Assembly: GCA_963977445.1 (NCBI GenBank)
Contig: CAXBPH010000037.1
Location: 1-37,094, forward strand
Reading direction: 5' to 3'
Source of the DNA: an uncultured bacterium
GTDB taxonomy: Bacteria > Hydrogenedentota > Hydrogenedentia > Hydrogenedentales > JAEUWI01
Length of the DNA stretch: 37,094 bases
A model generated the notes under the pieces. It had not been told where the DNA came from and ran no database searches. It saw only the letters and a list, made by a program, of their open reading frames with translations. Below, piece by piece: positions 1,462-32,386 of this stretch. Each line of letters begins with the position of its first letter. Within the stretch, counting starts at the first letter, position 1. The position numbers were made by a program, and so were the translations under genes.

Positions 1462-1529
1462 TACCGTGTCTTCCTTCCGCTTTTTTCTCAGCACTATACC
1501 GTAATGCTCTGATTTGTCGCAAGCACTGG

Positions 1530-2015: not shown

Positions 2016-2066
2016 TTCGCTAGACCTGCCTTATCTGGTGTCGTACGAAGTCGTTTGCCTGCTCGT

Positions 2067-3074: not shown

Positions 3075-3079
3075 AGCGA

Positions 3080-5320: not shown

Positions 5321-5467
5321 CGTATACCTATGTTCCCATACCCCCAGACGCAACACGCCTTGTCCGTCGTCAAGGCCTTTTTACTGTGCTGAATCGGTCC
5401 AATCCGCTCCGAAGGTAAATAGTGTTAATATTCCTATTTCCCAATATAGCGTAAACCCTTGTGCGTT

Positions 5468-7061: not shown

Positions 7062-10000
7062 CTAATCTCGCTTGAAGGTCTTAATAGATTGTTCCGATGC
7101 TTTTGAACCACCAGAGCCCGGCGTTACCACAAATTCTACCGAGGTAGGCGATTGATCAAACACGGGGAGACCGCTCACTGGGTCAGGGTAGCCCGTCGCG
7201 GCGCGGAGCACGTATTTCACGTCCCGCTTGCGGTGGGGGGACTCTGGGCCATCGTTCCCGTCGTCACCGAGACGCTCCCGCACCGGGCCACAGACGTCGG
7301 GCGAAAGGTTCAGGAAATCCAGCGGGTTGGGCGCGGCGTCCACGTTCACACCGGGGGTACCGCCAAAGAGATCCTGGGGGATAACGAGAAAGACCTTGGA
7401 GTTGTTCGCCGCACCGTCTATCGTGCCTGTCGCCACCACGACCCCATCTTCCAGCAGCTGAAAGGCGACGCCCGCGTTGCTGGTGTCGGCAGAATCGGGC
7501 AGATCCATGGTAATCGAGAATCCCGCTTCCACGCGCTGCACGCAGTCTTCCGGGGCGGTCAGAGGAATCCGGGTAGCCGCGCCGAAGGTTTTCTCGCCGG
7601 CATCAACACCGCGGAGATTGAGTCCATTGGTGAAGTTGTGCCAGAAGACCGGCTGCACCCGGGTATCAAGGGAAATACTCAGGCCCCCATTGTTCCACGT
7701 GTCGGCCACAAAGCCGAAGGGCAGGTTACCCAGGTTCAGGGTGCCCAGACCGGGATAGGTGGAACGATCCACAATATTGCCCGCCTCGTCCGCCGTGCGC
7801 ACCACGATCATATACTGGCCCGGGTTCGCGGTGATGTCGCCGAGACGCGTGCCGGCCACGGAATCGAATATGGTGAATTTATCGATGCGGGGCGACGCAA
7901 TCCAGTCGCTCCACTCCCGACCACCCGCCAGAGCCCAGCCTACGGAATAGGGGTCTTGCCCTACGGCACGCCCATAGACTGCATATTGAGCAATGGGATA
8001 GGCATTGTCGGTGTTGCTGGGTACGACGCCGTTGAAACGTTGCACCCCCCAGCTAATCACCGGGGAATTGGTAGCCTGGCCACCCAGGCCATCCCGCAGG
8101 GCACCCTGCACACCGGCGAGCTGCCAGATGTGAAAGGGTAAAATCTCTTGGATCAGGGGGTCATTGGAGGGATTGGCCCCCATGACGTTGCCCGCCAGAT
8201 CCTGGGCACCAAACTGGGCAACCGTTTCCCAGAACCCGGTACCCAGGGTAAAATCGGTCGGAACCCCGGTGAACACCCATTGTACGGTCAAGGTGTCGCC
8301 ACCCCCCGTATAATTGATGGCCAAGGAGGTCGCCCCATCGACGGCAACGGGCTTGACCCCTTCCCACCAGCCAAGTCCACGGGGATCCACGCCAGCGATA
8401 TCCGGATGGACCAGGGCGACGTTATTAATGTCAGGGCCTATATAGGGACCACCCACCGCACCAGCCGCGCCGAAGCCGGCCCGAGCGGGCGTAATATTTA
8501 CGCCGGCACCGTTGTCGCGGGGGAGCGCCGCGTCGGTAAAGGTTACTTGTATCGTAAAGTCGAATAGCGCCATCTGGTTGTTGAAGAAGACATGGGGATC
8601 CAGGCCTGCCTGCGCACCGGCCAACAGCCCTGTGCTCGACGGATAAGGATCACTAGCCGCACTCCAAGGCACCAACAAGGGCTCCGCGCCCAATCCACCC
8701 GTCGGGGGATCCAGGTTGGTAGACGCTACATATTCGAAGGCCCGGCCGGATCCGGTTACCGCGATGGTCGGCGCATAGGTGTCGATGATAAAGGTACGCC
8801 CCGCTTCGGCGGCCGGTTCAATTTGAGCTGCCGAGGTGGTAGAGAATTCGTCGCCACCCGCAGGAAAATCATTGTTGATATCACCAGGAATCTGGAGGGC
8901 CAACTCGGCCAGTCCATCCAGCAGAATCGTTTCCGTCTCAAAGGTTACATAGTGGTCGCCTTCAATCAAGAAGGTTGCCGTACCAAAGTACTCGAATCCC
9001 GGTGGGCCCACGGTGATGGGGATAGGCACATAGCGACGGACAGCCCCGAGCGCGCCCCCCTGGGGGACGACATAGAGGGTGGCGTTGGTCAGATCCGCGC
9101 CAAGTCCGCCAACGGTAATATCGATTTGTATTTCGCCAGCCGCCGCATATTCTTCAGCACTACCGACGATGGGCTGCAAGGGCTGACCAAACTGGTAGAT
9201 GTCACAATCGACCCAGCTTAACCCACCGGCCACGGCACCATGCTCGTGGGCACCCAGTTGGGCATCAGTCGTGTTTCGAATCCTAAAAACAAAATCGCGG
9301 CCCAGGGGGGCGGCAGACGTAAATGTGCCCGAGGCGACGCCGGTCTGGAAAGCCTGCCTCACCTGGCCGCGCCAGGGGCTGCCTGTAAGGAAGACCAGAT
9401 TTTCCGGGTCCGCAAACTCCGTCGCATAGGTAACGGCCCCGAGATCTTCTAAGGGGGGAGCGACGACCGTGGCCCCAACGGTACCACCGCCGGGAATACC
9501 GAACCAGTCCAACTCGACGCCGGCCACGGCACCATCCACCTGTACGGTGCCGGGACCACCATTATTGTTGTAGAAAAAGGAGCCGCTGGCCATGCAGGTG
9601 CCGCCCTGCAGATCGATGGCCAGGCCCGTGTTGTCGATGAAGGTAGATTGGGTAATGTTGACGGGGCCGCTGTTGATGAGTAGTCCCGCGCCGCCACAAC
9701 CCGTAAAGATGGAACTCGTAATATGAACCAGATTGGCATCACTGACGGTCATACCTTCGTTGCCTGTGCCGTTTATATAGACCCGGTCCATGATACAGCT
9801 GGCACCCATCATAACCTGGACCCCGACGGTGCCGCCGGTAATGCTCAGATGACGGAGGGTAACCTGGGCGTCGGTTTCCACGGTGATGGCCGGCGTACCC
9901 GCTGGACCTTCGATGATGATTTGGTCCGGCCGCTCGTTGTTGTTGAAAGGCCCTTGAATGCGGAGGGGACTCTTGGCCTTGGTAATAACCAGCTCACTGG

Positions 10001-10199
10001 TGAGTGTGTAGGTGCCTACCGCCTCAAGAAGGATAATATCACCCCCCGTTGCATTGTTGAAGGCCGTATTCAGGTCGGGGTAGGTTCCCGTCGCCCCAAC
10101 GGTGATAATGGCGGCAAAAACCGAAGTCGGGGCCAGCACCGCACATCCCAAGAGACATAGGGCGGCCTTAAAAGTCATTGTGCGCTTGAAATACAACAT
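7062..10199 (-). CDS. Large secreted protein with an N-terminal right-handed beta-helix, 1045 aa
   Basis: RBS AGGAGGT. Sec-type signal peptide ending SVFA. TYPDLNTAFNNATGGDIILLEAVGTY followed by parallel beta-helix-like repeats (VTLRHLSITGG, VHITSSIFTGC, VNITQSTFIDN). Later DLAGN and DEAGN Ig-like turns. Function unknown. Confidence 0.8.
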   Translation of the reverse strand: MLYFKRTMTFKAALCLLGCAVLAPTSVFAAIITVGATGTYPDLNTAFNNATGGDIILLEAVGTYTLTSELVITKAKSPLRIQGPFNNNERPDQIIIEGPAGTPAITVETDAQVTLRHLSITGGTVGVQVMMGASCIMDRVYINGTGNEGMTVSDANLVHITSSIFTGCGGAGLLINSGPVNITQSTFIDNTGLAIDLQGGTCMASGSFFYNNNGGPGTVQVDGAVAGVELDWFGIPGGGTVGATVVAPPLEDLGAVTYATEFADPENLVFLTGSPWRGQVRQAFQTGVASGTFTSAAPLGRDFVFRIRNTTDAQLGAHEHGAVAGGLSWVDCDIYQFGQPLQPIVGSAEEYAAAGEIQIDITVGGLGADLTNATLYVVPQGGALGAVRRYVPIPITVGPPGFEYFGTATFLIEGDHYVTFETETILLDGLAELALQIPGDINNDFPAGGDEFSTTSAAQIEPAAEAGRTFIIDTYAPTIAVTGSGRAFEYVASTNLDPPTGGLGAEPLLVPWSAASDPYPSSTGLLAGAQAGLDPHVFFNNQMALFDFTIQVTFTDAALPRDNGAGVNITPARAGFGAAGAVGGPYIGPDINNVALVHPDIAGVDPRGLGWWEGVKPVAVDGATSLAINYTGGGDTLTVQWVFTGVPTDFTLGTGFWETVAQFGAQDLAGNVMGANPSNDPLIQEILPFHIWQLAGVQGALRDGLGGQATNSPVISWGVQRFNGVVPSNTDNAYPIAQYAVYGRAVGQDPYSVGWALAGGREWSDWIASPRIDKFTIFDSVAGTRLGDITANPGQYMIVVRTADEAGNIVDRSTYPGLGTLNLGNLPFGFVADTWNNGGLSISLDTRVQPVFWHNFTNGLNLRGVDAGEKTFGAATRIPLTAPEDCVQRVEAGFSITMDLPDSADTSNAGVAFQLLEDGVVVATGTIDGAANNSKVFLVIPQDLFGGTPGVNVDAAPNPLDFLNLSPDVCGPVRERLGDDGNDGPESPHRKRDVKYVLRAATGYPDPVSGLPVFDQSPTSVEFVVTPGSGGSKASEQSIKTFKRD

Positions 10200-10390: not shown

Positions 10391-13300
10391 TTACTCACCC
10401 GTATCGGTCTGATCCGAGGGGGCGCGCCGTTCATAAATCGCCGACGCCTTCGTGCGCGCCGTCGTCGTAAATTCCCGGGGATCGCGATAGTTGATAAAAC
10501 CGTCGCCATTCTTATCCTGGCCAAAGCCCGATTCTACGGTCATAAATATCTTGTAGACATCCGACCGCGTCGTAATGAGATTGCCAATGCGGCGAAAACG
10601 GGCCTGATCTTCATCAAAGCGTTTGGACGGCGCCGCCTCATTGCTGAGCGGGTACACCGCGCGATTGTCCGTGCCCCCCACGTCACCGGCATTTGCCACG
10701 ACACCATCGGGCGGAGTGGGACGCCAACGGGGGCTGAGATTATTAAAGTAATTGTATACATAGGAACTATCATCGTCCACGAGGTCGCCGGTGGATCGGT
10801 AATACCGACCATCGGCATGCTCGATACGACCAATCTCCAGCAATTGATTCAACCGGAAGGCACCCAGTCGATGCATTTCTTCCCCGTTGTCGCCGGGGTC
10901 TCCATCAGTCAGCGATGCCGGCACCAACAAGTGGGTATCATTCGTTGCCTCGTCGAGACTGGTGCTCGGCGGGTCAATGCTATGCTCGTTGCGCGCCGGA
11001 GGCACACTCAAGGGACCGTAGCCCGGCTCCGTGTAGGTCAGCGCCGAATAGAAGGAATCCGGTGCGGGCCAACGCCCACCGAGTGAGGGGGGAGCGCTCA
11101 TCTCATCGATGGCATCTGCCGTACCGTAAGAAGGCAACAGCGATACACCGGTGGGAATGAGGTTTGTATCTACATTGTCCGACGGCACGACCGACGTGGC
11201 CGCATCCACCACGCCCGGCAAACTCAGCAGGGGATTCAGATAGCTGTGATTGGCACCAAGCGTCGGCATACGGCTCAGCGTGGTGTTCACGTTGATACGG
11301 CCGGCGGTGCGTTTCCGCGGCGCAAGCACGATATGGGTAATCACACCCACGTCACCCAGCTCACCCATGTTGCGAACCCGGAGGGCCAGGAAATTATCGG
11401 TCACCCGGACAATCTGGGGCTTCCAGCCCCCTACGGCATTGTTGCCATAGAAGATGTAGCCATCGTCATCGGCTTTGTAGATGATGGACGGTGTCCAGTC
11501 CACGGGGTTAATCAGGCCCGGTGGTTTCACCGAGGGATCGGCCGTGCCTGAGGCGACCGGGGCTACACCCCGGGCTTCCGTCGGATCGGTGATTACATCC
11601 AAGGCAAAAATGGGGTTGAATACGGAACCCGCACGATCGGGGTGCGAGGGGTCGTTGAATATGATTTCCCGGGTCACCTCATTTATCGCCAGCGAACCCT
11701 CGTTGATGACCGGTGCGACATCATAGAGCAAGTTGGTCTCGGCTTTCACCGGCAACGTCGGGTCGTAGGTCGCCGAATTCGCCGATACGTCGGCGGCGTC
11801 CAGGAGGCGCTCCCGCATACCGGGAACAAAGGTGCCCACGTAGAGCACGTACTCGCCATTTTCCAGACCATCGGCACCATCCCAGATAAAGAGACCTTCG
11901 GGGCGGTTAACGTTGGTGCTCGCTGTCACGGGTGCGGGAAACTCGGGCCGCACTTCGCTCACATACATGGCCACCCGCTGTTCCATGGGCCAGCGGTTGG
12001 CATAGGGATCCACGGCGTTGGCGCGCATATAGGCGTCAAATTGATTGGTGCCCAGATAGCGCCAGTTGAAAAGATAATCGGGCGTCAGCTGTTGGTTGAT
12101 GGTGACCCCGTTGATGTAGGACGGGTACGAGGGAAAACGATCCACCACGGTGGTGGTATCCCAGGCGGTATTCGCCAGCGGGAAGAGGAAGACCGGTGCC
12201 CAGGTGGCCGGGGCCAGATAGGCACCGCCCGTGCTGAAGGGATTCTTGACCCAATCGAGAATAGCGGCATGGGCACCAACCGGGAAGGTGGTCGTGTCGC
12301 TCAAATCGGGCACAATGGGATGGAACTCGGCCTGACCTACGGTGAAGGTCGCCGTATCCAGCGACATACTGTTTGTTGCGGCCGTAAGGAGGTTGCCGAA
12401 AGTCCGGTTGGTGATGGCGTCCTGACCCAACGTGGATCCCCGCAGGGCGATATCCTGCCTGGAGGATTGGCCGTCGTTGGCCGCCGTATTACTCTGCAGA
12501 CCATAGTTCATCATGGTCATGTCGCGGAGATAGACCGACCCGCCCGCCAACGCCGTGTTCACGGCATCGTGGAGGTAGGTCTGGTGGGGCACGTTCATCA
12601 GGTCCCCAGGCGTCGCAAATTTCTTGTTGGCCACAAAGCCCTTGGCCGTATTCCAACTCTGGTCACGCTGGGTGTTGAGATCGCCCCCTACGGGGCCATC
12701 CTCGTGGGTGCGGAACCAGGGTGCCGCCTCGAAGAACTGGCGATTGTCCGGAGCGCCCGCAACAACCCGCTCGAGATCCCGTGGGTTCTCGCTGAATCGG
12801 GTCGCCGTGTTCATGCGCAGGGGCGTGGCCGCCATGGCATGAAGGTAGAGGCGTCGTTGCCGTTGGGACAGGGCAAGGGGTAAGACGGGAAAACGAACCC
12901 GCCTATCCACCAGCGAATTGTTGGCTACCAAAATGGGCAGGGTAGCGGTCGTCTCCAGCTCGGCCTCGAAAAAGCTCAGGCTGTCGGCCCAGTCGTCGTA
13001 ATTACCATCGGTGGCCTGCCAGCGATTCTCGGTACCGAAGCGATCACCATTGTAAAGGGGGTGTTTGCGCTCCAGGCTGCGATAGAAATCCAGACCCATC
13101 TGGTTTTCGGGCCAGAAGGTGGGGTAGCCACTGTTAATCGTGAGGGGAACATTACCCGCGCCCAGATCGACGGGGAATTGCTCCAAATCATCAATGGTGC
13201 GGTTGGTCACATCGTATTCGCGATAGGTGACCCGATCCGCCACGATTTCGTCGTTGGCATCGCCCTGATAGAGGGTGACGATGACATTGTCGCCGGGATA

Positions 13301-16300
13301 CCAGCGCCGTTCGGCGAAGGCCTTCCAATCGGGGGGATCAAAATTGCTGCCGAGGTACGCATTGTCGTTCAATGCCGGGTCAAGGGCCGTAACGGCCAGC
13401 AGGGTCGCGTCAATTGCGGTAATCGTTCCGTTGGCCGCCGGATAGAGTGCCAAAGGCACCGGCACCGAAAGCTCATTGAAATTGAAGTAGTCGATATCCG
13501 TCGGATAACTATTGCGGTCGCTATAGAATTGTATAGGCAGGAGCTGGTCGGTGTAGTACCCTGCGGGGACCCCGAAGCCTTCGTCCACCCCTTCACTCAA
13601 CTGGGGGTTGACGCCGTCGCCATTGAAGCCCGCGGCAATGCCAAAGGGATCGATATCATCGAAGGTTGCCGGGCCACCGGGTACCGTTTCGCCCCGTTCG
13701 TCGATGAGGCCATCAAAATCATTGTCTACCATATCCCGGTCGAGGGTACCGGCGATATAACGGGGATCGGGGATAAGATCGCCGTCATCATCGGCTCCAA
13801 AAACCACGTAGGCCCCATCGCCATCGTTGTCGATGCCGTCGCGCTCGGGGTAGTTGGGCAACACGCCACCGCGCAGCACCAGGGCCGCCACGGTATCCAC
13901 GTCGATCACGTCGTCCATGGTAAATGCAAAGGGTGCGGTTGAAAATGGATTCTCTGAGGTGAGGCGGAGGTTATCCATCTGGACAATGCGGTCCCAGGGG
14001 CGATTGGCACGAGACAGATTGGTCTCGCCCAGGGCCACGCTATCGAGGCCGTCGGTGGTCGACAAGATGGAGGCTTCCGTGAGCACATTATCCGTATCGC
14101 GACCGAGGGTCGTGTCATACATGGAACTGGCACCGTCGCCGTCGCGGTCCACGTAATCTTCAAAGCGGTCCCGGAAAGGATCATAATTGCGACGGAAGAC
14201 ACTCCCCGTGAAATCCCCGTAGAAGGTCATGGGATGGGGCGAGATATAATTGGGCGAATCATCGCCAATGGGCGGCACAGTAATCGGCTGGTCGGTGATC
14301 GTATTGGTGTAGGAGAGGAAGGCATTGTCGCTCGCGGCCAACCCCATACCATTGTGGGCAATGGCATTACCCGGCTCATAGATCAGGCCAGCCTGAAGGG
14401 CAGGATCCACGCTTCGTCGGTAATGATCATATTTATTGAAGGCCAGGAGCACCATGCCCTGGGGGGCCACCAGGGTGCCCTGGGGCACTTTCCATTTGCT
14501 CTTGAAGGGATCGGGGGGAACATCATCGCCCCGGTCAGGAATACCCACTTCCAATTCCCAGCCGCCAATGTCTACGGCGTCGTTGGACACATTCACCAAC
14601 TCAACCCATTCGTGATCGGGCTCCTGGCTGAAATCCAGGGAGTCGATAGCGAGGGTGGTTGGTACTGGAGGTCCTGGAGGAGGTGGTAAGGTCGGGTCCA
14701 GACGAAATGCGATATAGAGATCTTCTGACGCACTGACTGTCACGGTGAAGGTCTGTGGAAACGCTGCTGAGCTTGGGGTACCCAGACGCGTATCTGAGAC
14801 ACCATCATAAATGCCACCGTCCGAATAGTAATCGTCCGCAGCGGGGTTAAGGCCATCCGTACCATCGAGAAAGACGGAACCGAAGGGGGCACCGGGTACC
14901 TGCTCGGAGTGGTGCAGCACAGGGGGTGAACGGAACGACGCGGGATCAACTGCGGGCGCGCCATAGCTGATGGAATATTGGAGGTCCGCCGCATTGGCAG
15001 CGGTAATACCCAGAACGCCCAGTGTCGCGGGGTCCACGAGGTTAACGGTCAAATAATAGCGCCCTGGAGGCATGGCATCCGTAGCGCCGATACGGAAATT
15101 TATAATGCTGTCGGGTGTACTTGTTTGAATCCACGTCCTGTCACCCAAGTATCCCGGTACCGCCGCTGTCGTTCCAAGAATCCAAGCACCGGGACCTTGC
15201 AGCAGACGTTCGACATCAAAATAAGGCAATTCGGCATGACCACCCTGGGGATCGAAGTTTTTCTGGTTAATCGCTGGAAGCAGGCCAACCGGGTCATCGA
15301 GATTGGGCACCAAAATCGCTGGGTTCGGCAGGGCCTCGGCCTCGATGCGACGGACGGGGCGCACCATGAGCTCATTGATGCGAATGGCTTCGTTGCCCGA
15401 AGCGGTGTAGCTAATCTGGCGCACTTCCGGGTTGCTATCTACACCGACCACGCCAGCCACGCCGGGCTGGACGGCGTCGAAGGTCCACCAGTCATCGCGG
15501 AATTCCAGTTTGCGGGAGATATCCATGGTGTGAAGGAGGTGATCCTGAATCTCTTCGACGGGCAGGAGTTCCCCTTCCCGAATCTGCTCACGACTGCTGA
15601 GTCGGGTGGGCCAGGTGTCGTAGACTGCGTCGGACAATGCGGCGGTCTGGGCGACCCGATCGCGCCGTTCGGTGCTCAGCAGGCTCCGGCCATTGTCCTT
15701 ATCGCGAAAATCGACAATGTCGACGGCCGACTGCATAATCTGAAGTACGGGATCGGCCGGAATGCCACCCACGGATGGAATCAGGGTGCCGAAACCATCG
15801 TCCACCCACATCAGACCTTCACCGGGCGAATTCAGCAAGGGAGCAGCCGGATCAAAGGAAGAACGGATGTGGACATCGCCCTGAAGCAATCCCTCGGCAA
15901 AGCGATTAACCGTGAGGGCGGTGGTCAGGGGTGCGGTAGTCACGGTCTGCACGCTATTGGCGATGAGCAGGTTTGCCGCAATCTGCGGGGCGGAAGCCAG
16001 ATTGTAGTCGAGTTTATTGACGGCCCGGATGGCACCGTTTTCACCCACGACGAAATTCACATTGCGGTCGGTGCTGTAGGCGGTCATGGCCTGTTGCAGG
16101 TCGTTGTATTGTCCGCTGCCGATGATGCCGCTGAGTTCCAGGGTATCTTTCAGCTGAAGGTCGCCAAATTCGCCCACTTCATTGGCGGCGTTGTCACCGT
16201 CGTTGTCGCCGGTGTCTGCGGTGCCAACCAGCAGGTATCGGTTGTTGCCTTCCGCTTCCAGATTCCGGAGGGAGCGATAGCGCTGCATTTCACTGAAGTC

Positions 16301-18493
16301 ATCGGTACCTTCGAAATCACCGAGCAGGGCGTAGTACACGCCAAAGAGCGGATCATTCAATGGGGGCAGATAGAGACCTTCATCAACCAGGCCATCGCCG
16401 TCGTTATCCTGGCCGTCGAGGGCCGCCAGCAGCAGGTTGGCATTGTCATCTACACCACCGTAGCCGGGGAGGTTCACATCCGCATTATAGTTGTTGCCCG
16501 GCGCGCCGCCGCCACCCGTGAGGGCGGTCCAGCTATTGAGGGCGCGGGTCACCCCATAGTGAGGTAGCACGCGGGTTTCTAATTCGTTGGTTGTCCGCCC
16601 GTTGCCGAGGGAGCGCCTGGGAGCGGTCAAATTGGGATCGCTGAAGGGCTCGTGGTGGTGACCACCGGCCACATTCATGTTGAGCCCACCGGCCTCATCG
16701 CGCACAAGAACGGCCGCGCGTCCTACAAGATTACAGACCGCTTCACCGGAGTGGGTAATGCGGAGTATCGAGGGCAGGGCCGCCTGGTAGTTGAAGGTAA
16801 TTCCGGGGCCATCATATTCGGAATAAAAGGTGCTCGAAGCGGGCTCGATGGTCAGCACGTTCCCCGGTATGGAAAAGATGGTTGCATCGAGATTAATGTC
16901 GTCATAGGATTTGCGCAAGGCAATTTCAAAGCGCTCGGCATCTGGTGGTACAGGTACCGCGCCGTCACCGGGGTGCCAGTTGCCGGCGAGCTGCCAGTTG
17001 TCGTAGTAGTTTGGCTGGGGCACGGTTGCGGTTACTGCGGCGCTGTTTTCGTCCGTTTGATTTTCAATGGCGCGCACAATGGTCGTGCCATCGTTGGCCG
17101 GGCTTTGCACCCCCGTGTCTTCGAAGCCCATCAGGCGGAAGGGCGGGCCGTTGGCCGTGTTTGGGCCCACGTAGGCGTAGGCGCTGTAGTTGTTGGCCAG
17201 CATGTCCCAGTCGTTGTCAATGACATCGACACGAGAGGCGTTCAGGCTAATACCAATGACCGTGCCTGCGGCGATATTTTCTGGATTATCGGAGGCAAAG
17301 ACCCGGATTTGCGCGGGAAGGGTCACCGAGAGGGGGGTGAGGATGCCGAAATTGGCATCGTCGGGCACGAGGTCGGGTACGATGCCGTCGGCGTTCAGGT
17401 CGATGGCAATTTTAATTCCGGGCAGGGGTGCCGTAAGAAAATAGCCGTAGAACGGTCCTATGGGCTGTTCGTTGGGATCGGCACCATCGATAAGTCCGTT
17501 GCCATCGTTGTCGAGGCCGTCGTTGCCGCCATAGTAAACAAAGGTGGGCAGCTCCAGGGATTCGTCGAGGTCATCGGCAACGCCGTCGGCATAGCCACCG
17601 ATGCCGTTGTCGTCGTCGATGTTGTTTTCCTGATTCTCGTCGACCATCCCATCGAGATCATTGTCAATGCGATCATCATAGAGCCGCAATTGTTGGAGGG
17701 CGATGTCTTCGCCGATGATTTCGCCGCCACTGGCAAAACGATCTTCCCCAATCGGAATCCACATGGAATCCCGTAGCCCGTCGAGATCAAGGTCTTCGTC
17801 GGTCCAGGTATCAATCCATTCCAGGGGGTAGCGTAGCGACTCGTCCAGCACGTCGGTGGGCGCGCCTGGTACGGGTTCATCGTACAGGCCATCCCCGTTG
17901 AAATCCGAGGGACCATAGTACGCGGGAGTCACGAAGGGTCCACGGTTTGGATCTAATATGTTAAAAATATAGTCGTAGGGCAGCCCCGTGCTCACATCGC
18001 GCACATTGGCATAGGCCATCGGGCCCAGGTCTTCATAGCGCGGGTAATAGAGCCACGGCGTGGAATTGGGACCGTTGTACAGTTGCTCTTGTATGCCGCC
18101 GCCAAAATCGATGAAGGGCATGTTTGCCAGATTGATGTAGGGAATGCCGCCCTGCTGCAGAGGAATGCCACCAAGTAATGCCCACGGCTTGCCCGCAACC
18201 CAGCGGCCATCAAAGAAGGCGAACTGGCGGTGATCGAAGGAGGTTGATTCGGGATGCTCCAGGAAATTCCGATTGATTTCCACCATCGCTTTGGCAAGCG
18301 CAGAGTCCACCAGCAAATCGGCCTGAATCCGGTTCTGGACGCTGTCGGCGTTTTTGACCTCCTGGCGACTTATGGAGTAGAAGGTTAGGGCGATAGCCAG
18401 CAGTATGGTCATGATCGCAATAGCTACGATCAGCGCTGCGCCGCGCTCTCTCGTTGGGCGACCCGATTTGGGAAACGTGTTCCTGTTCATCAT
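10391..18493 (-). CDS. Giant GspK/PilX-like minor pilin (~2700 aa) with lamin-tail-like and Asp-rich insertions
   Basis: Start trimmed to ATG 18493 (RBS AAAGGTG). Class III signal RERG|AALIVAIAIMTILLAIALTF lacks Glu5, as in GspK/PilX. GspK motifs appear in order: DEAGGLNMN, IVDFRDKDN, FATPGDLMNV, GRINVNT, ITTRSDVYKI. Confidence 0.85.
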   Translation of the reverse strand: MMNRNTFPKSGRPTRERGAALIVAIAIMTILLAIALTFYSISRQEVKNADSVQNRIQADLLVDSALAKAMVEINRNFLEHPESTSFDHRQFAFFDGRWVAGKPWALLGGIPLQQGGIPYINLANMPFIDFGGGIQEQLYNGPNSTPWLYYPRYEDLGPMAYANVRDVSTGLPYDYIFNILDPNRGPFVTPAYYGPSDFNGDGLYDEPVPGAPTDVLDESLRYPLEWIDTWTDEDLDLDGLRDSMWIPIGEDRFASGGEIIGEDIALQQLRLYDDRIDNDLDGMVDENQENNIDDDNGIGGYADGVADDLDESLELPTFVYYGGNDGLDNDGNGLIDGADPNEQPIGPFYGYFLTAPLPGIKIAIDLNADGIVPDLVPDDANFGILTPLSVTLPAQIRVFASDNPENIAAGTVIGISLNASRVDVIDNDWDMLANNYSAYAYVGPNTANGPPFRLMGFEDTGVQSPANDGTTIVRAIENQTDENSAAVTATVPQPNYYDNWQLAGNWHPGDGAVPVPPDAERFEIALRKSYDDINLDATIFSIPGNVLTIEPASSTFYSEYDGPGITFNYQAALPSILRITHSGEAVCNLVGRAAVLVRDEAGGLNMNVAGGHHHEPFSDPNLTAPRRSLGNGRTTNELETRVLPHYGVTRALNSWTALTGGGGAPGNNYNADVNLPGYGGVDDNANLLLAALDGQDNDGDGLVDEGLYLPPLNDPLFGVYYALLGDFEGTDDFSEMQRYRSLRNLEAEGNNRYLLVGTADTGDNDGDNAANEVGEFGDLQLKDTLELSGIIGSGQYNDLQQAMTAYSTDRNVNFVVGENGAIRAVNKLDYNLASAPQIAANLLIANSVQTVTTAPLTTALTVNRFAEGLLQGDVHIRSSFDPAAPLLNSPGEGLMWVDDGFGTLIPSVGGIPADPVLQIMQSAVDIVDFRDKDNGRSLLSTERRDRVAQTAALSDAVYDTWPTRLSSREQIREGELLPVEEIQDHLLHTMDISRKLEFRDDWWTFDAVQPGVAGVVGVDSNPEVRQISYTASGNEAIRINELMVRPVRRIEAEALPNPAILVPNLDDPVGLLPAINQKNFDPQGGHAELPYFDVERLLQGPGAWILGTTAAVPGYLGDRTWIQTSTPDSIINFRIGATDAMPPGRYYLTVNLVDPATLGVLGITAANAADLQYSISYGAPAVDPASFRSPPVLHHSEQVPGAPFGSVFLDGTDGLNPAADDYYSDGGIYDGVSDTRLGTPSSAAFPQTFTVTVSASEDLYIAFRLDPTLPPPPGPPVPTTLAIDSLDFSQEPDHEWVELVNVSNDAVDIGGWELEVGIPDRGDDVPPDPFKSKWKVPQGTLVAPQGMVLLAFNKYDHYRRSVDPALQAGLIYEPGNAIAHNGMGLAASDNAFLSYTNTITDQPITVPPIGDDSPNYISPHPMTFYGDFTGSVFRRNYDPFRDRFEDYVDRDGDGASSMYDTTLGRDTDNVLTEASILSTTDGLDSVALGETNLSRANRPWDRIVQMDNLRLTSENPFSTAPFAFTMDDVIDVDTVAALVLRGGVLPNYPERDGIDNDGDGAYVVFGADDDGDLIPDPRYIAGTLDRDMVDNDFDGLIDERGETVPGGPATFDDIDPFGIAAGFNGDGVNPQLSEGVDEGFGVPAGYYTDQLLPIQFYSDRNSYPTDIDYFNFNELSVPVPLALYPAANGTITAIDATLLAVTALDPALNDNAYLGSNFDPPDWKAFAERRWYPGDNVIVTLYQGDANDEIVADRVTYREYDVTNRTIDDLEQFPVDLGAGNVPLTINSGYPTFWPENQMGLDFYRSLERKHPLYNGDRFGTENRWQATDGNYDDWADSLSFFEAELETTATLPILVANNSLVDRRVRFPVLPLALSQRQRRLYLHAMAATPLRMNTATRFSENPRDLERVVAGAPDNRQFFEAAPWFRTHEDGPVGGDLNTQRDQSWNTAKGFVANKKFATPGDLMNVPHQTYLHDAVNTALAGGSVYLRDMTMMNYGLQSNTAANDGQSSRQDIALRGSTLGQDAITNRTFGNLLTAATNSMSLDTATFTVGQAEFHPIVPDLSDTTTFPVGAHAAILDWVKNPFSTGGAYLAPATWAPVFLFPLANTAWDTTTVVDRFPSYPSYINGVTINQQLTPDYLFNWRYLGTNQFDAYMRANAVDPYANRWPMEQRVAMYVSEVRPEFPAPVTASTNVNRPEGLFIWDGADGLENGEYVLYVGTFVPGMRERLLDAADVSANSATYDPTLPVKAETNLLYDVAPVINEGSLAINEVTREIIFNDPSHPDRAGSVFNPIFALDVITDPTEARGVAPVASGTADPSVKPPGLINPVDWTPSIIYKADDDGYIFYGNNAVGGWKPQIVRVTDNFLALRVRNMGELGDVGVITHIVLAPRKRTAGRINVNTTLSRMPTLGANHSYLNPLLSLPGVVDAATSVVPSDNVDTNLIPTGVSLLPSYGTADAIDEMSAPPSLGGRWPAPDSFYSALTYTEPGYGPLSVPPARNEHSIDPPSTSLDEATNDTHLLVPASLTDGDPGDNGEEMHRLGAFRLNQLLEIGRIEHADGRYYRSTGDLVDDDSSYVYNYFNNLSPRWRPTPPDGVVANAGDVGGTDNRAVYPLSNEAAPSKRFDEDQARFRRIGNLITTRSDVYKIFMTVESGFGQDKNGDGFINYRDPREFTTTARTKASAIYERRAPSDQTDTGE

Positions 18494-18651
18494 TGCTACT
18501 TCACCTTTACCTGGCCGCCATCCGTGCGGCCCCATTCCCCAACACCGGAACCTGGACCCAGTGTCCACTTCCGTTACCGCGCGTGGGGTCCGTCCCACGT
18601 CCTCAAGCCTGTTTTTCTGAATTCTTTACCGTCAACGGTTGACCCAAAACA

Positions 18652-20241
18652 CTACAGGGCCTGACCGGGGGTTCGTGCGATTACACTGCTCGGCGTGCGA
18701 CCGGAGGCCGCAGGCACCTGTATGGATTGTTCAAAGAGCCGACGAAATCCCGGTGCGCCGGGACGGGTCTTGGAACGGGTCACCCACAATTGGGGTGTTA
18801 TCACCCGGGGCAGATTGGGCAACAGGGGCGAACCCAGGTTGGCCCGGCTCTCGCGCAGGGTGCTCAATTGCTTGTCAGCCAACTCGCCGTCGATTTCTAC
18901 GAGGTCGGCGTTGGAATAGCCCCCCACGCCAGCGCCCAACAGACCGGGCACATCGAGCACGGAGTAGGGGTCATCGGGGTCACTCAGGTTGTCGGCGGTA
19001 TTGAAAAAGTTTACGTTGCCGTTCTTGCCGTCGCCGTAAGAAAACTTCACCTCGGCGTCGAGGGCATCGAGGGGATAGCCGTTGAAGGTCACGGGGTTGC
19101 CGGTGGCGGTATTAAGAAGTATGGCCCGGGAAATAATACCGTCTGCCACGACGAATTCGTTGACCACCCGGTGGTTACGCAGATTGTTGGAGGTGGTGGA
19201 TGCTTCGTCATACCAAAAGCCGTTGCCATCGGATTCGGGCCCGGTGGACGTGGGATCGAGGTCCTCCACACCCATCGTTTCGCCGGAGAGCATGCGCAAC
19301 CAGAATTCCCGTTTCTTCGCGCGCAGCAGGGTGTCGAAGGTATCCCGGCCGAAGACCCGCAGGTATGTCGTGTCGAAGGTCACGGGGTGGACCCAGCCAC
19401 CGCCCGCGTTGATGTTTTGGTACACCTCACGCATGTCGTAGGTGGTGGTACTCGGGTCAGGATTGAGGGCACTCAGGAGAAACTCAAACTGGGCCGCTTC
19501 GTTGGCGTCCAACCCACCGAGGGGGGCGTCGTTCAGGGGCTCCACGGGATCGATGTAGACGGGTGCCCAATCGAGGGTGATATCGGCGGTGTTGGTGCCG
19601 TTGCGCTTGACATACATATTGAAGGTATCGAGATCGGTCACGCCGATTTCTTCAAGGCGGATCAGGCTCTCGGTCTGAATGATGACCTCGAATTCGATGT
19701 AGTCATCGACAAGATTGGTACCACCGCTGTTGTAAGCGGCATTGAGAACATTCAATGCATTTTGCACGAAGGCCTGGGCCGCGACGCCGAATAGCTTTTC
19801 GTCTTCACGGGCGATGCGCTGAAACTGGCGCTGTACATATTGGGTCACGGTGCCCCAACGCTCGGTGATGGTCAACTCGAAGGCGGGCTTGGACAATTCG
19901 GGATGAAAAACATAGGACACCCGGCCCAGTTTGCCTTCGTCGAGGGCACCCACAAACATGAAGCCGTCGGGACGGCCGTAAAAGCTGTAGACATCACCAA
20001 ACTCTTCGGACACGAAGGCACCGCTCAGGTCACGGTCGATGGTGGTCATGGCGGCCCGGGCATTTTCGTAGGCGTCGATGCTGGCGTAGCCCTGGCGCGC
20101 ACTGTCGACAGCGGCGCTGAACATGGTCGCGAGGCCACTCATGAGAATCAGGAAGATGACCATGGCCACCAGCAATTCGGTGAGGGTGAAGCCGCGCTGA
20201 CCGTGACGATGGGTTCGGGTTCGTGGGTGATACTTCATCAT
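18652..20241 (-). CDS. Enlarged GspJ/PilW-like minor pilin (~529 aa)
   Basis: QRG|FTLTELLVAMVIFLILM, then YENARAAMTTIDRDLSGA (J/W-type helix) and a C-terminal LPRVITPQLWV (J-type LPxxV). Start trimmed to ATG 20241 after the RBS GAGAGG. Confidence 0.8.
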   Translation of the reverse strand: MMKYHPRTRTHRHGQRGFTLTELLVAMVIFLILMSGLATMFSAAVDSARQGYASIDAYENARAAMTTIDRDLSGAFVSEEFGDVYSFYGRPDGFMFVGALDEGKLGRVSYVFHPELSKPAFELTITERWGTVTQYVQRQFQRIAREDEKLFGVAAQAFVQNALNVLNAAYNSGGTNLVDDYIEFEVIIQTESLIRLEEIGVTDLDTFNMYVKRNGTNTADITLDWAPVYIDPVEPLNDAPLGGLDANEAAQFEFLLSALNPDPSTTTYDMREVYQNINAGGGWVHPVTFDTTYLRVFGRDTFDTLLRAKKREFWLRMLSGETMGVEDLDPTSTGPESDGNGFWYDEASTTSNNLRNHRVVNEFVVADGIISRAILLNTATGNPVTFNGYPLDALDAEVKFSYGDGKNGNVNFFNTADNLSDPDDPYSVLDVPGLLGAGVGGYSNADLVEIDGELADKQLSTLRESRANLGSPLLPNLPRVITPQLWVTRSKTRPGAPGFRRLFEQSIQVPAASGRTPSSVIARTPGQAL

Positions 20242-20248
20242 GGCCTCT

Positions 20249-20656
20249 CTATTGCTCGGTGACATAGGTCACAAAGCGTTCACGGCGCCCGTCGAAAAGT
20301 TCTACGTTGAAGGTCACGCGATACAGATCGACGTCACTACTGATGCGCTTCACGGTGCTGGTCCAGGACTTGTAGAGGCCCGGCACGGGATCAAAGTACG
20401 TCCCCCCGGCAGCGCTCAGATTGCGATAGGCATTGGCGGAAGCCCAATCGGTCAACAAGGGACCCACACCGCCCGCGCGCAATTTGCCCAGCTCGGTCTT
20501 GGCCAGAAAGGCCACCTGCTGACGCACGGCTGCATTGTGGGATTGTTTAATGGACTCAGGGAAAATTTTCATGATGGCAATTATCGCTACGGCCAGAATG
20601 GTGAGGGCCACCATCACTTCCAGAAGCGTAAAACCACTGCGCTGATTTGTTTTCAT
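20249..20656 (-). CDS. GspI/PilV-like minor pilin (135 aa)
   Basis: MKTNQRSG|FTLLEVMVALTILAVAIIAI and LYRVTFNV; size and position fit. Start trimmed to ATG 20656 (RBS GAGGT). Confidence 0.8.
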   Translation of the reverse strand: MKTNQRSGFTLLEVMVALTILAVAIIAIMKIFPESIKQSHNAAVRQQVAFLAKTELGKLRAGGVGPLLTDWASANAYRNLSAAGGTYFDPVPGLYKSWTSTVKRISSDVDLYRVTFNVELFDGRRERFVTYVTEQ

Positions 20657-20669
20657 GACGGAAACCTCA

Positions 20670-21614
20670 CTAAAAGTTCTTCGGGATTTCGGTACGTCCC
20701 GTCGATTTGAAAATATGAATCTTCCGATACAACATATTGGGCAGGCCACCGGCATCAAAATGGGTGTCCAGCTCAGGGATGATCAATCGCTCTTCGGCGA
20801 TACGAGACGCCACCGGCGCGATATAGATGGTGAATCGTTCGTTATTGCTGTTGACACCCAGACGACCCGAAGGCTTAAACACATGGGCACCAAAGGTCTC
20901 GGTGGTGAAATTCGTGGGGGTGGAAGCGAAAGTCGCGAAATCGACGCCCTCCAGCCCTGAGGGCACGCCTAAGGCGACGGATACACGGGAAATTCCCATT
21001 TCATCGGCCACCGTGGTCATCGGTATCGTATCCGTCAATCGAAAATTGGATCGAAGCTGATTCCAATAGATGGGCTGTGGCACAGGGGGGGCGTCGGTGT
21101 TGGGTTCTTCGGGATTCATCAACAGGATGGCCATACCCTGAGGAAACTCATTAAAGTCGCCCTTTTCACCTGGAATCGGCACATAGTGTCCACTAAGAGC
21201 ACCCATGCTGCTGGGTAACTGATACATGAGGGACGCGGACTCAAATTGACGGACGAGATTGCCCGAAATGGAGTCGACTATGGGGAGGACAGGAGCGAAT
21301 GCCGGATCAGCAGGGTTTTCGGTTGCCGGGTTGGACCCGGGAAAGATGTCGACAGCGGTGGCTTCGTCGTTGGACCAATTATCGAGGTTGTACACCACGG
21401 CCGTGTTTACATGGTAGGTCGTGGAATAGATCTGCGCCGCACGCAGCAGGCCCGAAACATCCTGCACCGTTCGCCGGAATTCATCTCGGGAGAAGGCCCC
21501 AAGTCGCGCCAGGCCGGGAATGGCGATAGCGGTGAGGAGAGCCACCAGGCCGAGGACCACCATAAGCTCTACCAATGTAAAGCCGCGCCGCCCAATTTTT
21601 GCTCCATGTCGCAC
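20670..21614 (-). CDS. GspH/FimU-like minor pilin (314 aa)
   Basis: RRG|FTLVELMVVLGLVALLTAIAIP, VSGLLRAAQIYS, VFKPSGR and C-terminal IHIFKSTGRTEI (H/FimU-type). Confidence 0.8.
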   Translation of the reverse strand: MRHGAKIGRRGFTLVELMVVLGLVALLTAIAIPGLARLGAFSRDEFRRTVQDVSGLLRAAQIYSTTYHVNTAVVYNLDNWSNDEATAVDIFPGSNPATENPADPAFAPVLPIVDSISGNLVRQFESASLMYQLPSSMGALSGHYVPIPGEKGDFNEFPQGMAILLMNPEEPNTDAPPVPQPIYWNQLRSNFRLTDTIPMTTVADEMGISRVSVALGVPSGLEGVDFATFASTPTNFTTETFGAHVFKPSGRLGVNSNNERFTIYIAPVASRIAEERLIIPELDTHFDAGGLPNMLYRKIHIFKSTGRTEIPKNF

Positions 21615-21654
21615 GGTGAAATACCTCGTGTTTCGGGTTACTAAACTGACCGCA

Positions 21655-21686
21655 GCCTGATCGACGCCAAGAGACGTCGATCAGGC
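21655..21686. other. 12-bp perfect hairpin immediately downstream of the major pilin gene
   Basis: gcctgatcgacg (21655-21666), N8, cgtcgatcaggc (21675-21686); no U-tract. Confidence 0.7.
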
Positions 21687-21694
21687 CACAGGAA

Positions 21695-22573
21695 TTAATT
21701 GTAAAAACGCATGTAGGTTTGGTTCTTCTTATCCCAGTTGCAGATATCGTCACCACCACCCATCAACTCCGGCTCCTGACCACTGTCATAGTTGGTGATG
21801 GAGTTGTCGGTATAGCCCGGGTCATAGAAACGGAAGAGGGCCTGGCCCGACACGCCATTTTCGCCAAAGGACCAGATAAAAAGATCCTTGCGGTCATCGG
21901 CGGGGATACCAATTCGATCCAAGTCGGCACCTGTCTCGGGGTCAAACAGGGTGATAGCGTTCACCTCGGCAGGGTTTACCACATTGCCCAAAAGGCTGAG
22001 GATATCGCCATCTACTGCGGAAGTGTCGTCGCCCGGAAGGGTGGCAGCACCTACTTCCGGTGGCAGGTAAACACGGAAAGGTACCGGACCGTTACGGCTG
22101 GTGGACCAGGGGCCGGGGTAGAACTGGTACAGCTTGCCCCAAGGGTCGAAGGACAAGTCCGTCATGTAGGATGTGCCCAGGTTACGTATAACGTCTAGTT
22201 TAAACAGTGTGTCCGAGATACCCGTGTTTTGAGGGTCCGCCGCCGCGCGACCTTTGCGTAACAGGCGATACATGGCATCAGTATAGCGATCCGTAGCTGC
22301 CTGAAAGTCAATTGCGTCCCACGTGGTCATATCACCACCGAGTTCGGTTTCGAGAACGGTGAGGTCGAAAAAATCCGTTATATTGCTGCGACCTGCATCG
22401 GAGACCATCTTGGTAATGGCCAATTCGATATTTTGAATCTCCGACTGCGCCTGTACCGCCCGTCCTCGGCGAATCCATTTCTGGACATTGGGAATGGCGA
22501 TGGCCGCCAGGATGGAGATGATAGCCATCACCACCAGCAGTTCAATCAAGGTAAATCCGCGCTTCGTACGCAT
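21695..22573 (-). CDS. Probable major pilin, enlarged GspG type (292 aa)
   Basis: MRTKRG|FTLIELLVVMAIISILAAIAIP, with GspG-type motifs DPWGKLYQF, IWSFGENG and GDDICNW. Strong RBS GAGGAGG. Confidence 0.85.
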   Translation of the reverse strand: MRTKRGFTLIELLVVMAIISILAAIAIPNVQKWIRRGRAVQAQSEIQNIELAITKMVSDAGRSNITDFFDLTVLETELGGDMTTWDAIDFQAATDRYTDAMYRLLRKGRAAADPQNTGISDTLFKLDVIRNLGTSYMTDLSFDPWGKLYQFYPGPWSTSRNGPVPFRVYLPPEVGAATLPGDDTSAVDGDILSLLGNVVNPAEVNAITLFDPETGADLDRIGIPADDRKDLFIWSFGENGVSGQALFRFYDPGYTDNSITNYDSGQEPELMGGGDDICNWDKKNQTYMRFYN

Positions 22574-23893: not shown

Positions 23894-23907
23894 CTGTCGT
23901 TCCTCGA

Positions 23908-25653: not shown

Positions 25654-25659
25654 AAGCGT

Positions 25660-26763: not shown

Positions 26764-26798
26764 AACGTGTTATCTCCCAAGAATGAACCGACTGTAGG

Positions 26799-28631: not shown

Positions 28632-28661
28632 AGTGACACCTCTCGCTTTTGACACACTGTA

Positions 28662-31030: not shown

Positions 31031-31087
31031 TAACGCTACTCCGTATATGCGGCGGGACCCATCGGATCGACCACCGCCCAAAGGGGC

Positions 31088-32362: not shown

Positions 32363-32386
32363 TTCATAGGGACCCGCCGAGTCCCA

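Follow-up and report, generated by a model that had tools for sequence, protein, structure and literature searches.

The sequence considered here is a stretch of 37,094 nt from an uncultured bacterium of the phylum Hydrogenedentota (assembly GCA_963977445.1, contig CAXBPH010000037.1, positions 1 to 37,094), which we call the window and in which every gene lies on the minus strand. Our subject is one very large gene at 10391..18493 (minus strand, stop codon at 10391-10393), whose product is described below as a giant K-class minor pilin of 2,700 amino acids (aa). The open reading frame (ORF) is uninterrupted over 10391..18598 and would give 2735 aa from a GTG start; position 18493 is Met36 of that frame, where an AGGTGA-like ribosome-binding site precedes a start that yields 2,700 aa, and the protein database contains an identical 2,700-aa sequence (P0003), whose residue numbers (P0001 numbering minus 35) are used throughout. 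An initial annotation of this DNA had read the frame as a GspK in which all landmark motifs of a canonical 424-aa GspK encoded nearby recur in order, separated by large insertions. The frame is indeed real, with intact homologues in 123 of 135 Hydrogenedentota genomes, and a direct coordinate check found all six motif strings exactly where they had been placed: GAALIV at 18425-18442, DEAGGLNMN at 16673-16699, IVDFRDKDN at 15692-15718, FATPGDLMNV at 12590-12619, GRINVNT at 11282-11302 and ITTRSDVYKI at 10547-10576. Their order is also that of their partners in the 424-aa GspK (residues 14, 115, 164, 198, 240 and 348).

The giant belongs to a pilus gene set with the order pilB-pilT-pilB-pilC, four pilins with Glu at position +5 (Glu+5), the giant, a large secreted protein and an FGE-sulfatase-like protein, ending with a 758-aa PilM fusion (Amuc_1101-like), two small genes and the N-terminal part of a TPR/STN secretin (Amuc_1098-like). 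A gap of 400 nt separates this set from an upstream set resembling a type II secretion system (T2SS), which comprises gspE (partial), F, G, a pilin-like ORF, I, J, K, an L-like gene and a small ORF. The four pilins (18652..22573, minus strand; 292, 314, 169 and 537 aa) all start G|FTLxE, match Pfam N_methyl and NCBIfam N-terminal models, and are in order major-pilin-like, GspH-like, GspI/PilV-like and GspJ/Verru_Chthon-C-like, the best NCBIfam match of the 537-aa neighbour being Verru_Chthon cassette protein C. Standing fifth, after these four, the giant occupies the K position of a minor-pilin cassette, and the gene order recurs in the closed genomes G069, which belongs to the same genus, and G034, from another family. 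The PilT gene in the operon suggests a retractile pilus, and a Peptidase_A24 (prepilin peptidase) gene is found elsewhere in the genome. The T2SS-like cluster has its own ordinary gspK (31088..32362, minus strand, 424 aa) 12.6 kb upstream of the giant; it served as comparator, with 69.2 bits to Pfam T2SSK_1st (PF21687), of which it is the sole above-cut-off match in the genome, and 119.4 bits to NF037980 (cut-off 130).

The N-terminus of the giant is of the K type. Its class III leader, RERG|AALIV, has Gly at -1, a cleavage site after G18, Ala at +1 and Val at +5, and neither the giant (G|AALIV) nor the GspK (G|VALIL) has the Phe+1 and Glu+5 of the four upstream pilins (GFTLxE). Glu+5 was found in none of 46 aligned giants, six relatives of intermediate size and 36 GspKs, the residue at +5 being V, I, M or L in all 46 giants. 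According to PMC13533445, Glu+5 is missing from all PilK/GspK homologues, which form the most apical subunit. The defining feature of that class, a class III leader and hydrophobic helix without Glu+5, is found in the giant, and the last place in an H-I-J-K minor-pilin cassette is occupied by the giant, by its counterparts in G069 and G034, and by the relatives L057, L058 and L061 described below. Residues 1-110 (18164..18493) contain the leader, the long helix alpha1 and, after it, a conserved HP..TS.DH..F.G.W.AGK.W block, as delimited by NF037980, hhalign and an AlphaFold helix at 15-79. The NCBIfam GspK model NF037980 matches the giant at E 6e-5 over profile positions 1-67, hhalign places giant 11-107 on GspK 7-104 (97%, E 1e-10), and of 18 giants, 15 have matches to both NF037980 and TIGR02600, with best E values of 3.8e-12 and 1.8e-12 respectively, none of which reaches its cut-off. 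At the level of class, the view of the giant as a GspK-type pilin is thus borne out by a GspK/PilX-type leader, the absence of Glu+5 and the K position.

The gene is kept throughout the phylum. With one genome counted per species, it is present not only in 123 of the 135 genomes overall but in 82 of 86 high-quality genomes and in 61 of 66 genera. In the protein database 131 proteins match the giant at E <= 0.001; the 120 listed measure 1,646-3,431 aa, and every named homologue among the matches listed is from Candidatus Hydrogenedentes. In the genome scan, the homologous frames among the matches listed, including those of the single-contig genomes G069 and G034, are open over 2,000-3,340 aa with no internal stops, and in the family alignment conserved blocks span the full length of the giant, the presumed inserts included. 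The very large insertions that separate the GspK-like parts are conserved family-wide. Two short family members, P0107 and P0112, were considered as compact forms and rejected, both being truncated.

What ties the rest of the giant to GspK is a series of smaller relatives. Searching 1.84 billion representatives with a profile of giant residues 1-1060 yielded 506 matches at E <= 0.001, which included, besides giants and giant fragments, P0299, P0300, P0320, P0329 and P0336, of 1,222-1,602 aa (E 7e-40 to 1e-18), and one protein of 2,178 aa. By BLASTP these intermediates are collinear with the giant over up to eight blocks (giant residues 12-98, 557-843, 1026-1056, 1271-1356, 1539-1604, 1732-1836, 2344-2445 and 2613-2689). 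Curated domains are recognized in them above cut-off: PilX_N in P0299 (26.3 bits; cut-off 25.5), and T2SSK and HHH_3 in P0336 (29.9 and 29.7 bits). A scan of species genomes with the alignment of these intermediates added four full-length relatives, one of 695 aa in Candidatus Ratteibacteria, one of 1,037 aa in Candidatus Omnitrophota, and those of 1,034 and 2,129 aa in two metagenome-assembled genomes (MAGs), together with partial matches in Verrucomicrobiota and Hydrogenedentota; about 28 of the 37 loci were set aside, matching only the acidic DG.DND.DG loop. The relatives from Ratteibacteria and the two MAGs (L057, L058 and L061) follow GFxLxE pilins. The protein of L058 also passes the T2SSK cut-off of 24.2 bits (26.0 bits), and in both it and P0336 the stretch concerned is the block aligned to giant 2344-2445.

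The 695-aa protein (L057) provides the link in both directions. Giant residues 588-710, 760-840 and 2625-2692 align to its residues 103-207, 187-275 and 622-685 with HH probabilities of 98.2, 97.4 and 97.0%, and the 695-aa protein, used as a single sequence, aligns over residues 2-246 to Hydrogenedentota GspK 11-222 (89.9%, E 1.7e-6) and over 557-695 to GspK 223-423 (93.7%, E 1.9e-7), the reversed controls giving E 0.018 and 0.56. In addition, P0300 2-392 aligns to GspK 8-281 (97.4%) and P0300 1126-1274 to GspK 230-367 (61%), and NF037980 recognizes two stretches of P0336 (E 5.8e-14), of which the better, at the C-terminus of P0336, covers profile positions 205-277 of 307. Because the blocks of the giant align to the 695-aa relative and the two halves of this relative align to GspK, the giant is, as judged from these alignments, homologous to GspK and contains the GspK scaffold. 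The giant is a real, phylum-wide K-class minor pilin with nested insertions on the GspK plan. The idea of a GspK expanded six-fold needs revision, however: very large insertions there are, but proteins of 695-1,602 aa from other phyla already have this architecture, and it is to them, not to a 424-aa GspK, that the Hydrogenedentota giant adds ~1,400 aa at seven or more sites. Enlarged K-type pilins also occur in other lineages (L061:5314-11703, 2,129 aa; P0314, 2,178 aa), so very large forms may have arisen more than once.

Direct comparison of giant and GspK gives a more divided picture. In a profile-profile scan of 100-aa windows of a 48-sequence giant alignment against 36 GspKs, in which reversed GspKs reached a maximum of 20.4, the N-terminus scored 70.5 (97%), DE..N.N 35.6 (62%; giant 580-609 to GspK 98-125) and INVNT 34.7 (56%, E 1e-4; giant 2390-2406 to GspK 232-248), the latter two above every reversed control. 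The C-terminal strand was borderline at 22.8, at the predicted place (GspK 339-358); FATPGDLMNV was found at its predicted place yet inside the noise (17.7), and IVDFRDKDN was not recovered against GspK. Giant 1798-1816 also matched GspK 178-196 (score 23.1), but this pairing lies in the lamin-tail region, out of context, and was not accepted as orthologous. Over a longer stretch, hhalign matched giant 577-850 to GspK 95-270 at E 0.001, with a score of 35.4 against 13.5 for reversed GspK. When matches beyond the N-terminus were chained, the column-permuted GspK profiles, 200 per gap cost, all scored lower than the real one at costs 6 and 8 (z 4.1-5.6), all but one at cost 10 and all but five at cost 12. 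The 95th percentile (20.4) of the best ungapped null match, whose maximum was 22.6, was exceeded only by the two I/L-N-x-N motifs (22.8 and 22.5), which also cross-match each other.

Several results count against derivation from the GspK plan. Pairwise BLASTP of the giant with the neighbouring 424-aa GspK is not significant (best E 0.65), and the giant falls below every curated threshold tested, including that for the lamin-tail domain (25.2 against 34.3 bits). It reaches 22.7 bits with NF037980 (cut-off 130) and 17.1 bits with TIGR02600 (cut-off 332.3), in both cases at the N-terminus only, and gives no match at E <= 1 to T2SSK_1st (gathering threshold 26.2 bits) or T2SSK. PF21687 likewise has no match at the giant locus in a genome search nor to residues 572-898 alone, T2SSK (PF03934, gathering threshold 24.2 bits) has none in 18 family members at E <= 0.1, and the isolated pieces 1725-1845, 1025-1060, 2331-2430 and 572-898 have no Pfam match at E <= 10. 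Against solved structures, phmmer with the giant found no GspK and the giant-family profile no GspK chain, while the best solved-structure matches of P0336 are EEPD1 and PsbU rather than GspK, and the INxNTA unit also resembles generic ComEA-type helix-hairpin-helix domains. Collinearity is only marginal at gap costs 6-8, where order-shuffled nulls equal the real score in 12-13 of 200 cases (giant blocks shuffled) or 5-6 of 200 (GspK blocks), and at cost 12 there is no excess over them. Foldseek and VIA-align searches with two AlphaFold fragments gave no GspK match, other domains dominating, and the putative alpha-domain region 600-811 has a predicted local distance difference test score (pLDDT) below 50. 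A GspK alignment search for longer proteins (780-2,225 aa) found none, which is weak evidence, and leads from the ESM Atlas all scored below 0.9, one cluster (0.75) having HHH_3 in 13% and T2SSK in 11% of its members. Since it stays below the curated thresholds of every family tested, the giant is not filed in NF037980 or TIGR02600; it descends from the K class and probably works like it.

Read along the chain (all coordinates on the minus strand), GspK up to about residue 222, with alpha1, the DE..N.N strands, the acidic loop and the first helix-hairpin-helix unit, corresponds in the alignments to giant 1-110 plus 576-815, and GspK 223-423, with the second helix-hairpin-helix unit and the terminal strands, to giant ~2390-2440 plus 2621-2700. 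The first interruption, insertion 1 (residues 111-575; 16769..18163), is mostly beta by its strand content, has acidic D-x-D-x-DG loops and is predicted at pLDDT 65-89 over 320-590. These ~465 aa are found in Hydrogenedentota giants only and are absent from the 695-1,303-aa relatives; in P0299, P0300 and L057 the DE..N.N block comes no more than ~30-40 residues after alpha1. Residues 576-815 (16049..16768), assigned by hhalign to GspK and to the 695-aa relative, contain the VRDEAGGLNMN strands and the first GspK-like alpha-domain unit, with the acidic loop DGQDNDGDGLVDEG, the helix-hairpin-helix LKDTLELSGIIG and MTAYSTDRN.

The two helix-hairpin-helix units of the alpha-domain are separated by the main insertion, ~1,550 aa long, which probably includes an additional repeat unit, a lamin-tail domain containing nested modules, and a predicted sugar-binding-module-like beta-sandwich. 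The extra helix-hairpin-helix-like unit starts within residues 826-940 (15674..16018; NKLDYNLASAPQIAANLL ... AVDIVDFRDKDNGRS), which hold IVDFRDKDN and are conserved in giants and intermediates, D928 and D931 being kept at >= 90% and the intermediates reading IAANIxDFRDxD. Further on come an invariant block, ISYT.AG.E.IRINE.MVRPVRR.EAE, at residues 1026-1053 (15335..15418; conservation 0.77, occupancy 1.00; 64-75% BLASTP identity to intermediates), the lamin-tail core at 1283-1363 (14405..14647; Pfam PF00932, E 2.2e-5, profile positions 10-74 of 109), and the most conserved block of the family at 1726-1850 (12944..13318; conservation up to 0.85; BLASTP E 3e-9 to P0299 and 7e-7 to P0300), which reads WKAF.ERRW.PGDNVIVTLY ... 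MGLDFYRSLERKHPLY.GDRFGT.NRW.ATDGNYDDW. The lamin-tail model matches 13 of 18 family members at E <= 0.1, and its cut-off of 34.3 bits is exceeded by P0300 (1,303 aa; 36.7 bits) and by the protein of L060 (36.1 bits); the domain is probably real in the giant too, but split. To judge from their motifs, residues 1026-1053 may be its first strand and residues 1726-1850 its closing strands, a reading that Pfam did not confirm. Residues 1951-1975 (12569..12643; VANKKFATPGDLMNVPH) include FATPGDLMNV and have an occupancy of 0.98; hhalign puts them at the right place but inside the noise (E 0.06-0.08), and the same block reads RVKNANFSTVGEL.DVPF in the intermediates and VKNRPFSQVGELGNI, after the lamin-tail domain, in the 695-aa relative. 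Residues 2046-2395 (11309..12358) form, in the predicted structure, a jelly-roll beta-sandwich with a possible resemblance to carbohydrate-binding modules.

With residues 2396-2440 (11174..11308; GRINVNTT...NPLLSLPGVVDA) the chain returns to what hhalign and the T2SSK/HHH_3 matches of the relatives indicate is the second GspK-type helix-hairpin-helix unit. A third expansion of ~180 aa precedes the terminal hairpin, in the form of a poorly conserved linker (residues 2441-2620; 10634..11173; occupancy mostly 0.28-0.5; pLDDT < 50 at 2437-2520 and 2586-2609), and there are several acidic calcium-type loops besides. The C-terminal residues 2621-2700 (10394..10633; SDVYKIFMTVESGF / TTTARTKASAIYER) comprise a helix and the terminal beta-hairpin according to AlphaFold and to hhalign with the 695-aa relative; AlphaFold gives the helix at 2622-2636 and strands at 2646-2658 and 2675-2688, as well as strands at 577-596. 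By alignment, this hairpin is equivalent to the last strands of GspK. Neither of the two predicted fragments, at pLDDT 66.9 and 61.6, could contain the whole pilin sheet; what they do give is the long alpha1, the strands at 577-596 and the terminal hairpin. Set against P0300, the giant is longer by ~447 residues between alpha1 and the first strands and is expanded at six further places by ~70-270 residues. Its composition is strongly acidic, with 9.7% Asp, 1.1% Lys, one Cys and nine D-x-D-x-DG-type loops, among them those at residues 234-239, 277-282, 696-701, 1449-1454, 1555-1560 and 1590-1595 (window ~13709-17794). These loops follow the DG.DND.DG..DE pattern of Pfam Cu-binding_MopE and of the NCBIfam 'acidic double-disulfide repeat', minus their cysteines.

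A protein so unusual might be suspected of being an assembly chimera, a set of fused gene calls or a decaying pseudogene, and the source is a metagenome-type assembly of 464 contigs; a search of sequencing runs listed none of RNA and one of DNA that contained 9% of the sampled words. Yet unbroken frames of 2,000-3,340 aa stand at the orthologous place in many independent assemblies, the two single-contig genomes among them, the blocks are conserved along the whole giant and the operon context is conserved as well; the conservation of frames, blocks and context across independent genomes excludes such an artefact for practical purposes. Another alternative, which we regard as improbable, is that the giant is a grafted modular pilin, in which only the N-terminal helix is pilin-like, the rest is unrelated, and the I/L-N-x-N-T-A units are ComEA-type DNA-binding units of a DNA receptor (cf. 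ComZ). C-terminally grafted modular pilins are common, as PMC8179133 reports, and the sole database-level GspK match of the giant covers the N-terminal 67 profile positions; moreover, HHH_3 outscores T2SSK in the L057 and L058 relatives, and the solved-structure matches of P0336 are generic helix-hairpin-helix proteins. A graft is hard to reconcile, however, with the C-terminal 140 residues of the compact relative aligning to GspK 223-423 through the terminal strands (93.7%), with the P0336 match to NF037980 positions 205-277, or with a DE..N.N strand block directly after alpha1 in compact relatives, as in GspK, and the strong acidity of the giant is unfavourable for DNA binding.

Granted the GspK plan, it is the correspondence of two landmarks, IVDFRDKDN and FATPGDLMNV, that is in dispute. 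The initial annotation had paired all six motifs with those of GspK; four of the pairs are supported, and these two more likely belong to the extra repeat unit. The profile-supported equivalents of GspK 164-172 and 198-207 are giant ~692-706 and 782-795. The 695-aa relative reads FDLNRASISEI...VNIRDYQDEDS...YYGLEKTPY-FNEIE[lamin-tail domain]...VKNRPFSQVGELGNI...GRININTAS, and the two giant motifs correspond to its VNIRDYQDEDS and KNRPFSQVGEL, which flank the lamin-tail domain. Since the significant alignments already use the earlier unit for those GspK positions, the two motifs are probably parts of a paralogous, extra T2SSK_1st-like unit that has been split by the lamin-tail domain, an assignment made from sub-threshold matches. 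On the alternative reading, which we think unlikely, all six landmarks are orthologous; the first alpha unit would then run DEAGGLNMN (599) - IVDFRDKDN (926) - FATPGDLMNV (1959), and the lamin-tail block would have been inserted in the GspK loop between IDW.D.D/PYP and KNGP..S..EL. All six blocks are conserved in giants and intermediates, and VNIRDYQDEDS...YYGLEKTPY-[lamin-tail domain]-KNRPFSQVGELGNI of the 695-aa protein does resemble GspK LIDWMDEDN...DFYQASEVPYPCKNGPMDSIDELLLIKG interrupted once. Pfam T2SSK_1st, at positions 36-83, matches precisely the stretch of L057 preceding the lamin-tail domain (18.2 bits, E 0.004, below cut-off), and hhalign places 695-aa relative 506-532 on GspK 186-212 and giant 1954-1977 on GspK 193-216. 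These hhalign matches are at noise level, though (E 0.06-0.17 against 0.17-0.26 for reversed controls), and IVDFRDKDN was never recovered against GspK for the giant. GspK 110-222, both disputed motifs included, aligns to giant 577-815 and to 695-aa relative 109-246, ahead of the disputed blocks, and the family has one helix-hairpin-helix-like unit more than GspK, into which the disputed motifs fit.

In our view the giant is likely to be the K-class minor pilin at the apex of a type IVa-pilus-like machine. It would follow the plan of GspK, with a cleavable class III leader lacking Glu+5, alpha1, the DE..N.N strands, a helix-hairpin-helix alpha-domain, and a terminal beta-hairpin that would close the pilin sheet in cis. 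By analogy with the behaviour of GspK and PilK set out in PMC13533445, prepilin peptidase would cut the giant after Gly18; joined by the GspI-like and GspJ-like pilins encoded upstream, the mature protein would then prime the filament, and it would stay at the very tip, its own terminal strand closing the sheet. Its ~2,000 beta-rich, Asp-rich residues could form a calcium-stabilised binding head for polysaccharide or cell-surface ligands, as suggested by the composition, the acidic loops, the lamin-tail domain and the predicted sugar-binding-module-like sandwich; the loops match proteins rich in the Pfam MopE-type metal-binding motif. In this way the giant may substitute for a separate PilY1-type adhesin. 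The sequence data establish the gene, its conservation, its place in the operon, its K-type N-terminus and, by way of the intermediates, its homology to GspK; the GspK-type fold, the tip location and the binding of calcium and ligand are all inferred.

A bolder proposal, which we hold to be quite unlikely, is that this ~0.3-MDa pilin, the largest pilin class so far, replaces a PilY1-type adhesin with a head that is nested in one loop of the GspK alpha-domain and is too bulky when folded for an ordinary secretin. The unusual TPR/STN secretin, the conserved beta-helix protein and the FGE-sulfatase-like lipoprotein would then be a dedicated export and mounting route, or else the filament would be a short, non-retracting grappling device for the capture of polysaccharide or prey. 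Large PilC/PilY1 adhesins are mounted on pili, as described in PMC13533445, so size alone is no argument for a problem at the secretin.

Among known systems, GspK/XcpX (NF037980; PF21687 and PF03934; PDB 3CI0, as cited in PMC13533445) is alike in its leader without Glu+5 and in its K position after H-, I- and J-like pilins, and, by way of the compact relatives, apparently also in the DE..N.N motif, the helix-hairpin-helix units inserted in the pilin sheet and the terminal strands in cis. The giant differs in being six to seven times longer, with ~2,200 extra residues at several sites, in staying below all curated cut-offs, and in having the probable extra repeat unit, the probable lamin-tail domain and predicted beta-sandwich modules; it also stands in a PilT-containing type IVa-like operon, while the T2SS cluster keeps its own ordinary GspK. 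Verru_Chthon cassette protein A (TIGR02600, 1,296 positions; accompanied by B, C and D) is likewise a large GspK-like protein that ends a four-pilin cassette, and relatives of the giant match its positions 224-264 (DE.SK block) and 1193-1224 (C-terminal block), but the giant is far below its cut-off and matches over short stretches only. A literature search found no paper on the Verru_Chthon/TIGR02600 family.

CpaL of Tad pili, ComZ of Thermus and a homologue in the V. cholerae competence pilus are apical minor pilins with a functional domain of their own, a sheet closed in cis and no separate PilC/PilY1, according to PMC13533445, where their insertions are <= ~470 aa and lie between the sheet and the last strand. 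The main insertion of the giant, in contrast, lies inside the alpha-domain and is three times larger, and a second insertion follows alpha1. Modular type IV pilins, exemplified by PilB and PilC of S. sanguinis, use a pilin module to carry lectin-like or vWA binding modules on the filament, grafted C-terminally via a short linker (PMC8179133), unlike the nested insertions of the giant. The same source, a 2021 survey, counts over 1,200 such proteins in 264 architectures, the most extreme of 860 residues; it was based on the IPR012902 signature, which may miss K-type leaders without the methylation/Glu+5 motif. PilC/PilY1 resembles the giant in its probable role as a large tip-mounted adhesin and in size range, metagenomic PilC/PilY1 reaching 3,500 residues (PMC13533445). 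PilY1 is not a pilin, however, and donates the last strand in trans, whereas the giant is a pilin. PF05567 (PilC/PilY1) has no match in the giant, and a genome search also gave none, but neither did 14 control genomes. On giant K-type pilins or Hydrogenedentota pili the literature search found no paper, most subscription journals being outside its coverage.

The genes around the giant offer further observations. Directly downstream lies a gene for a secreted beta-helix protein (7062..10199, minus strand; 1,045 aa) with a Sec-type signal peptide and a Pfam Beta_helix match (E 3.5e-9), conserved in position in G069 (1,033 aa) and G034 (1,506 aa). It is a possible pilus-associated adhesin or enzyme; as an in-trans strand donor it found no support, the three sequences inspected having no obvious conserved strand at the extreme C-terminus. 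Between it and the PilM fusion, lies a gene (5531-6931 (-)) for a protein of 466 aa that combines PEGA repeats with an FGE-sulfatase domain and is weakly similar to the type IX secretion system lipoprotein PorK/GldK (E 3e-20), and a gene of the same size occupies the same place in G069 and G034. At 1-5356 (-), the 758-aa PilM fusion matches the Akkermansia Amuc_1101 family at E 9e-78, below cut-off, and the N-terminus of the TPR/STN secretin weakly matches the Amuc_1098 family, which would place the machine closer to the pilus cluster of the Planctomycetes-Verrucomicrobia-Chlamydiae type than to the proteobacterial type IVa pilus. On the other side, at 22655-28655 (-), two full-length PilB/GspE-type ATPases (618 and 581 aa), both with an MshE-type cyclic di-GMP-binding N-domain (NF053729, E 6e-14 and 2e-17), flank PilT (367 aa); a third GspE (partial, 36711-37094) is a member of the T2SS-like cluster. 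Inside the window that cluster, which spans 29056-37094 (-) from gspE to an M-like ORF, lacks its own secretin gene, and since the sole secretin seen is at the end of the pilus cluster, the two may share it. In this phylum the ordinary GspK contains a low-complexity insert rich in Q and N at residues 320-345 (RRNNNDQQQQRDQQND) and, at residues 380-424, a C-terminal extension of ~40 residues with an additional strand-like FYRILEWKVI that is absent from the giant and its relatives. In the ORFs at 33639-34865 (-) and 20249-20758 (-) the pilin leader lies deep in the frame (residues 136-159 of 408 and 38-62 of 169); judging by where the leaders lie, translation probably begins inside these frames, which would make the genes shorter than annotated.

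The tips of pili and pseudopili decide what a filament binds and when its growth starts. Known K-class subunits have ~150-450 residues, against the 2,000-3,400 kept almost universally by this uncultured phylum. The giant opens no new machine class, but a graded series (695, ~1,030, 1,222-1,602 and 2,129-2,178 aa) connects it with ordinary GspK and shows where the scaffold tolerates insertion, namely after alpha1 and between the two helix-hairpin-helix units. It is thereby a natural test of the recent model in which 'beta-strand addition in cis' licenses the tip, and a candidate surface-recognition organ for the Hydrogenedentota, a phylum of hardly known biology.

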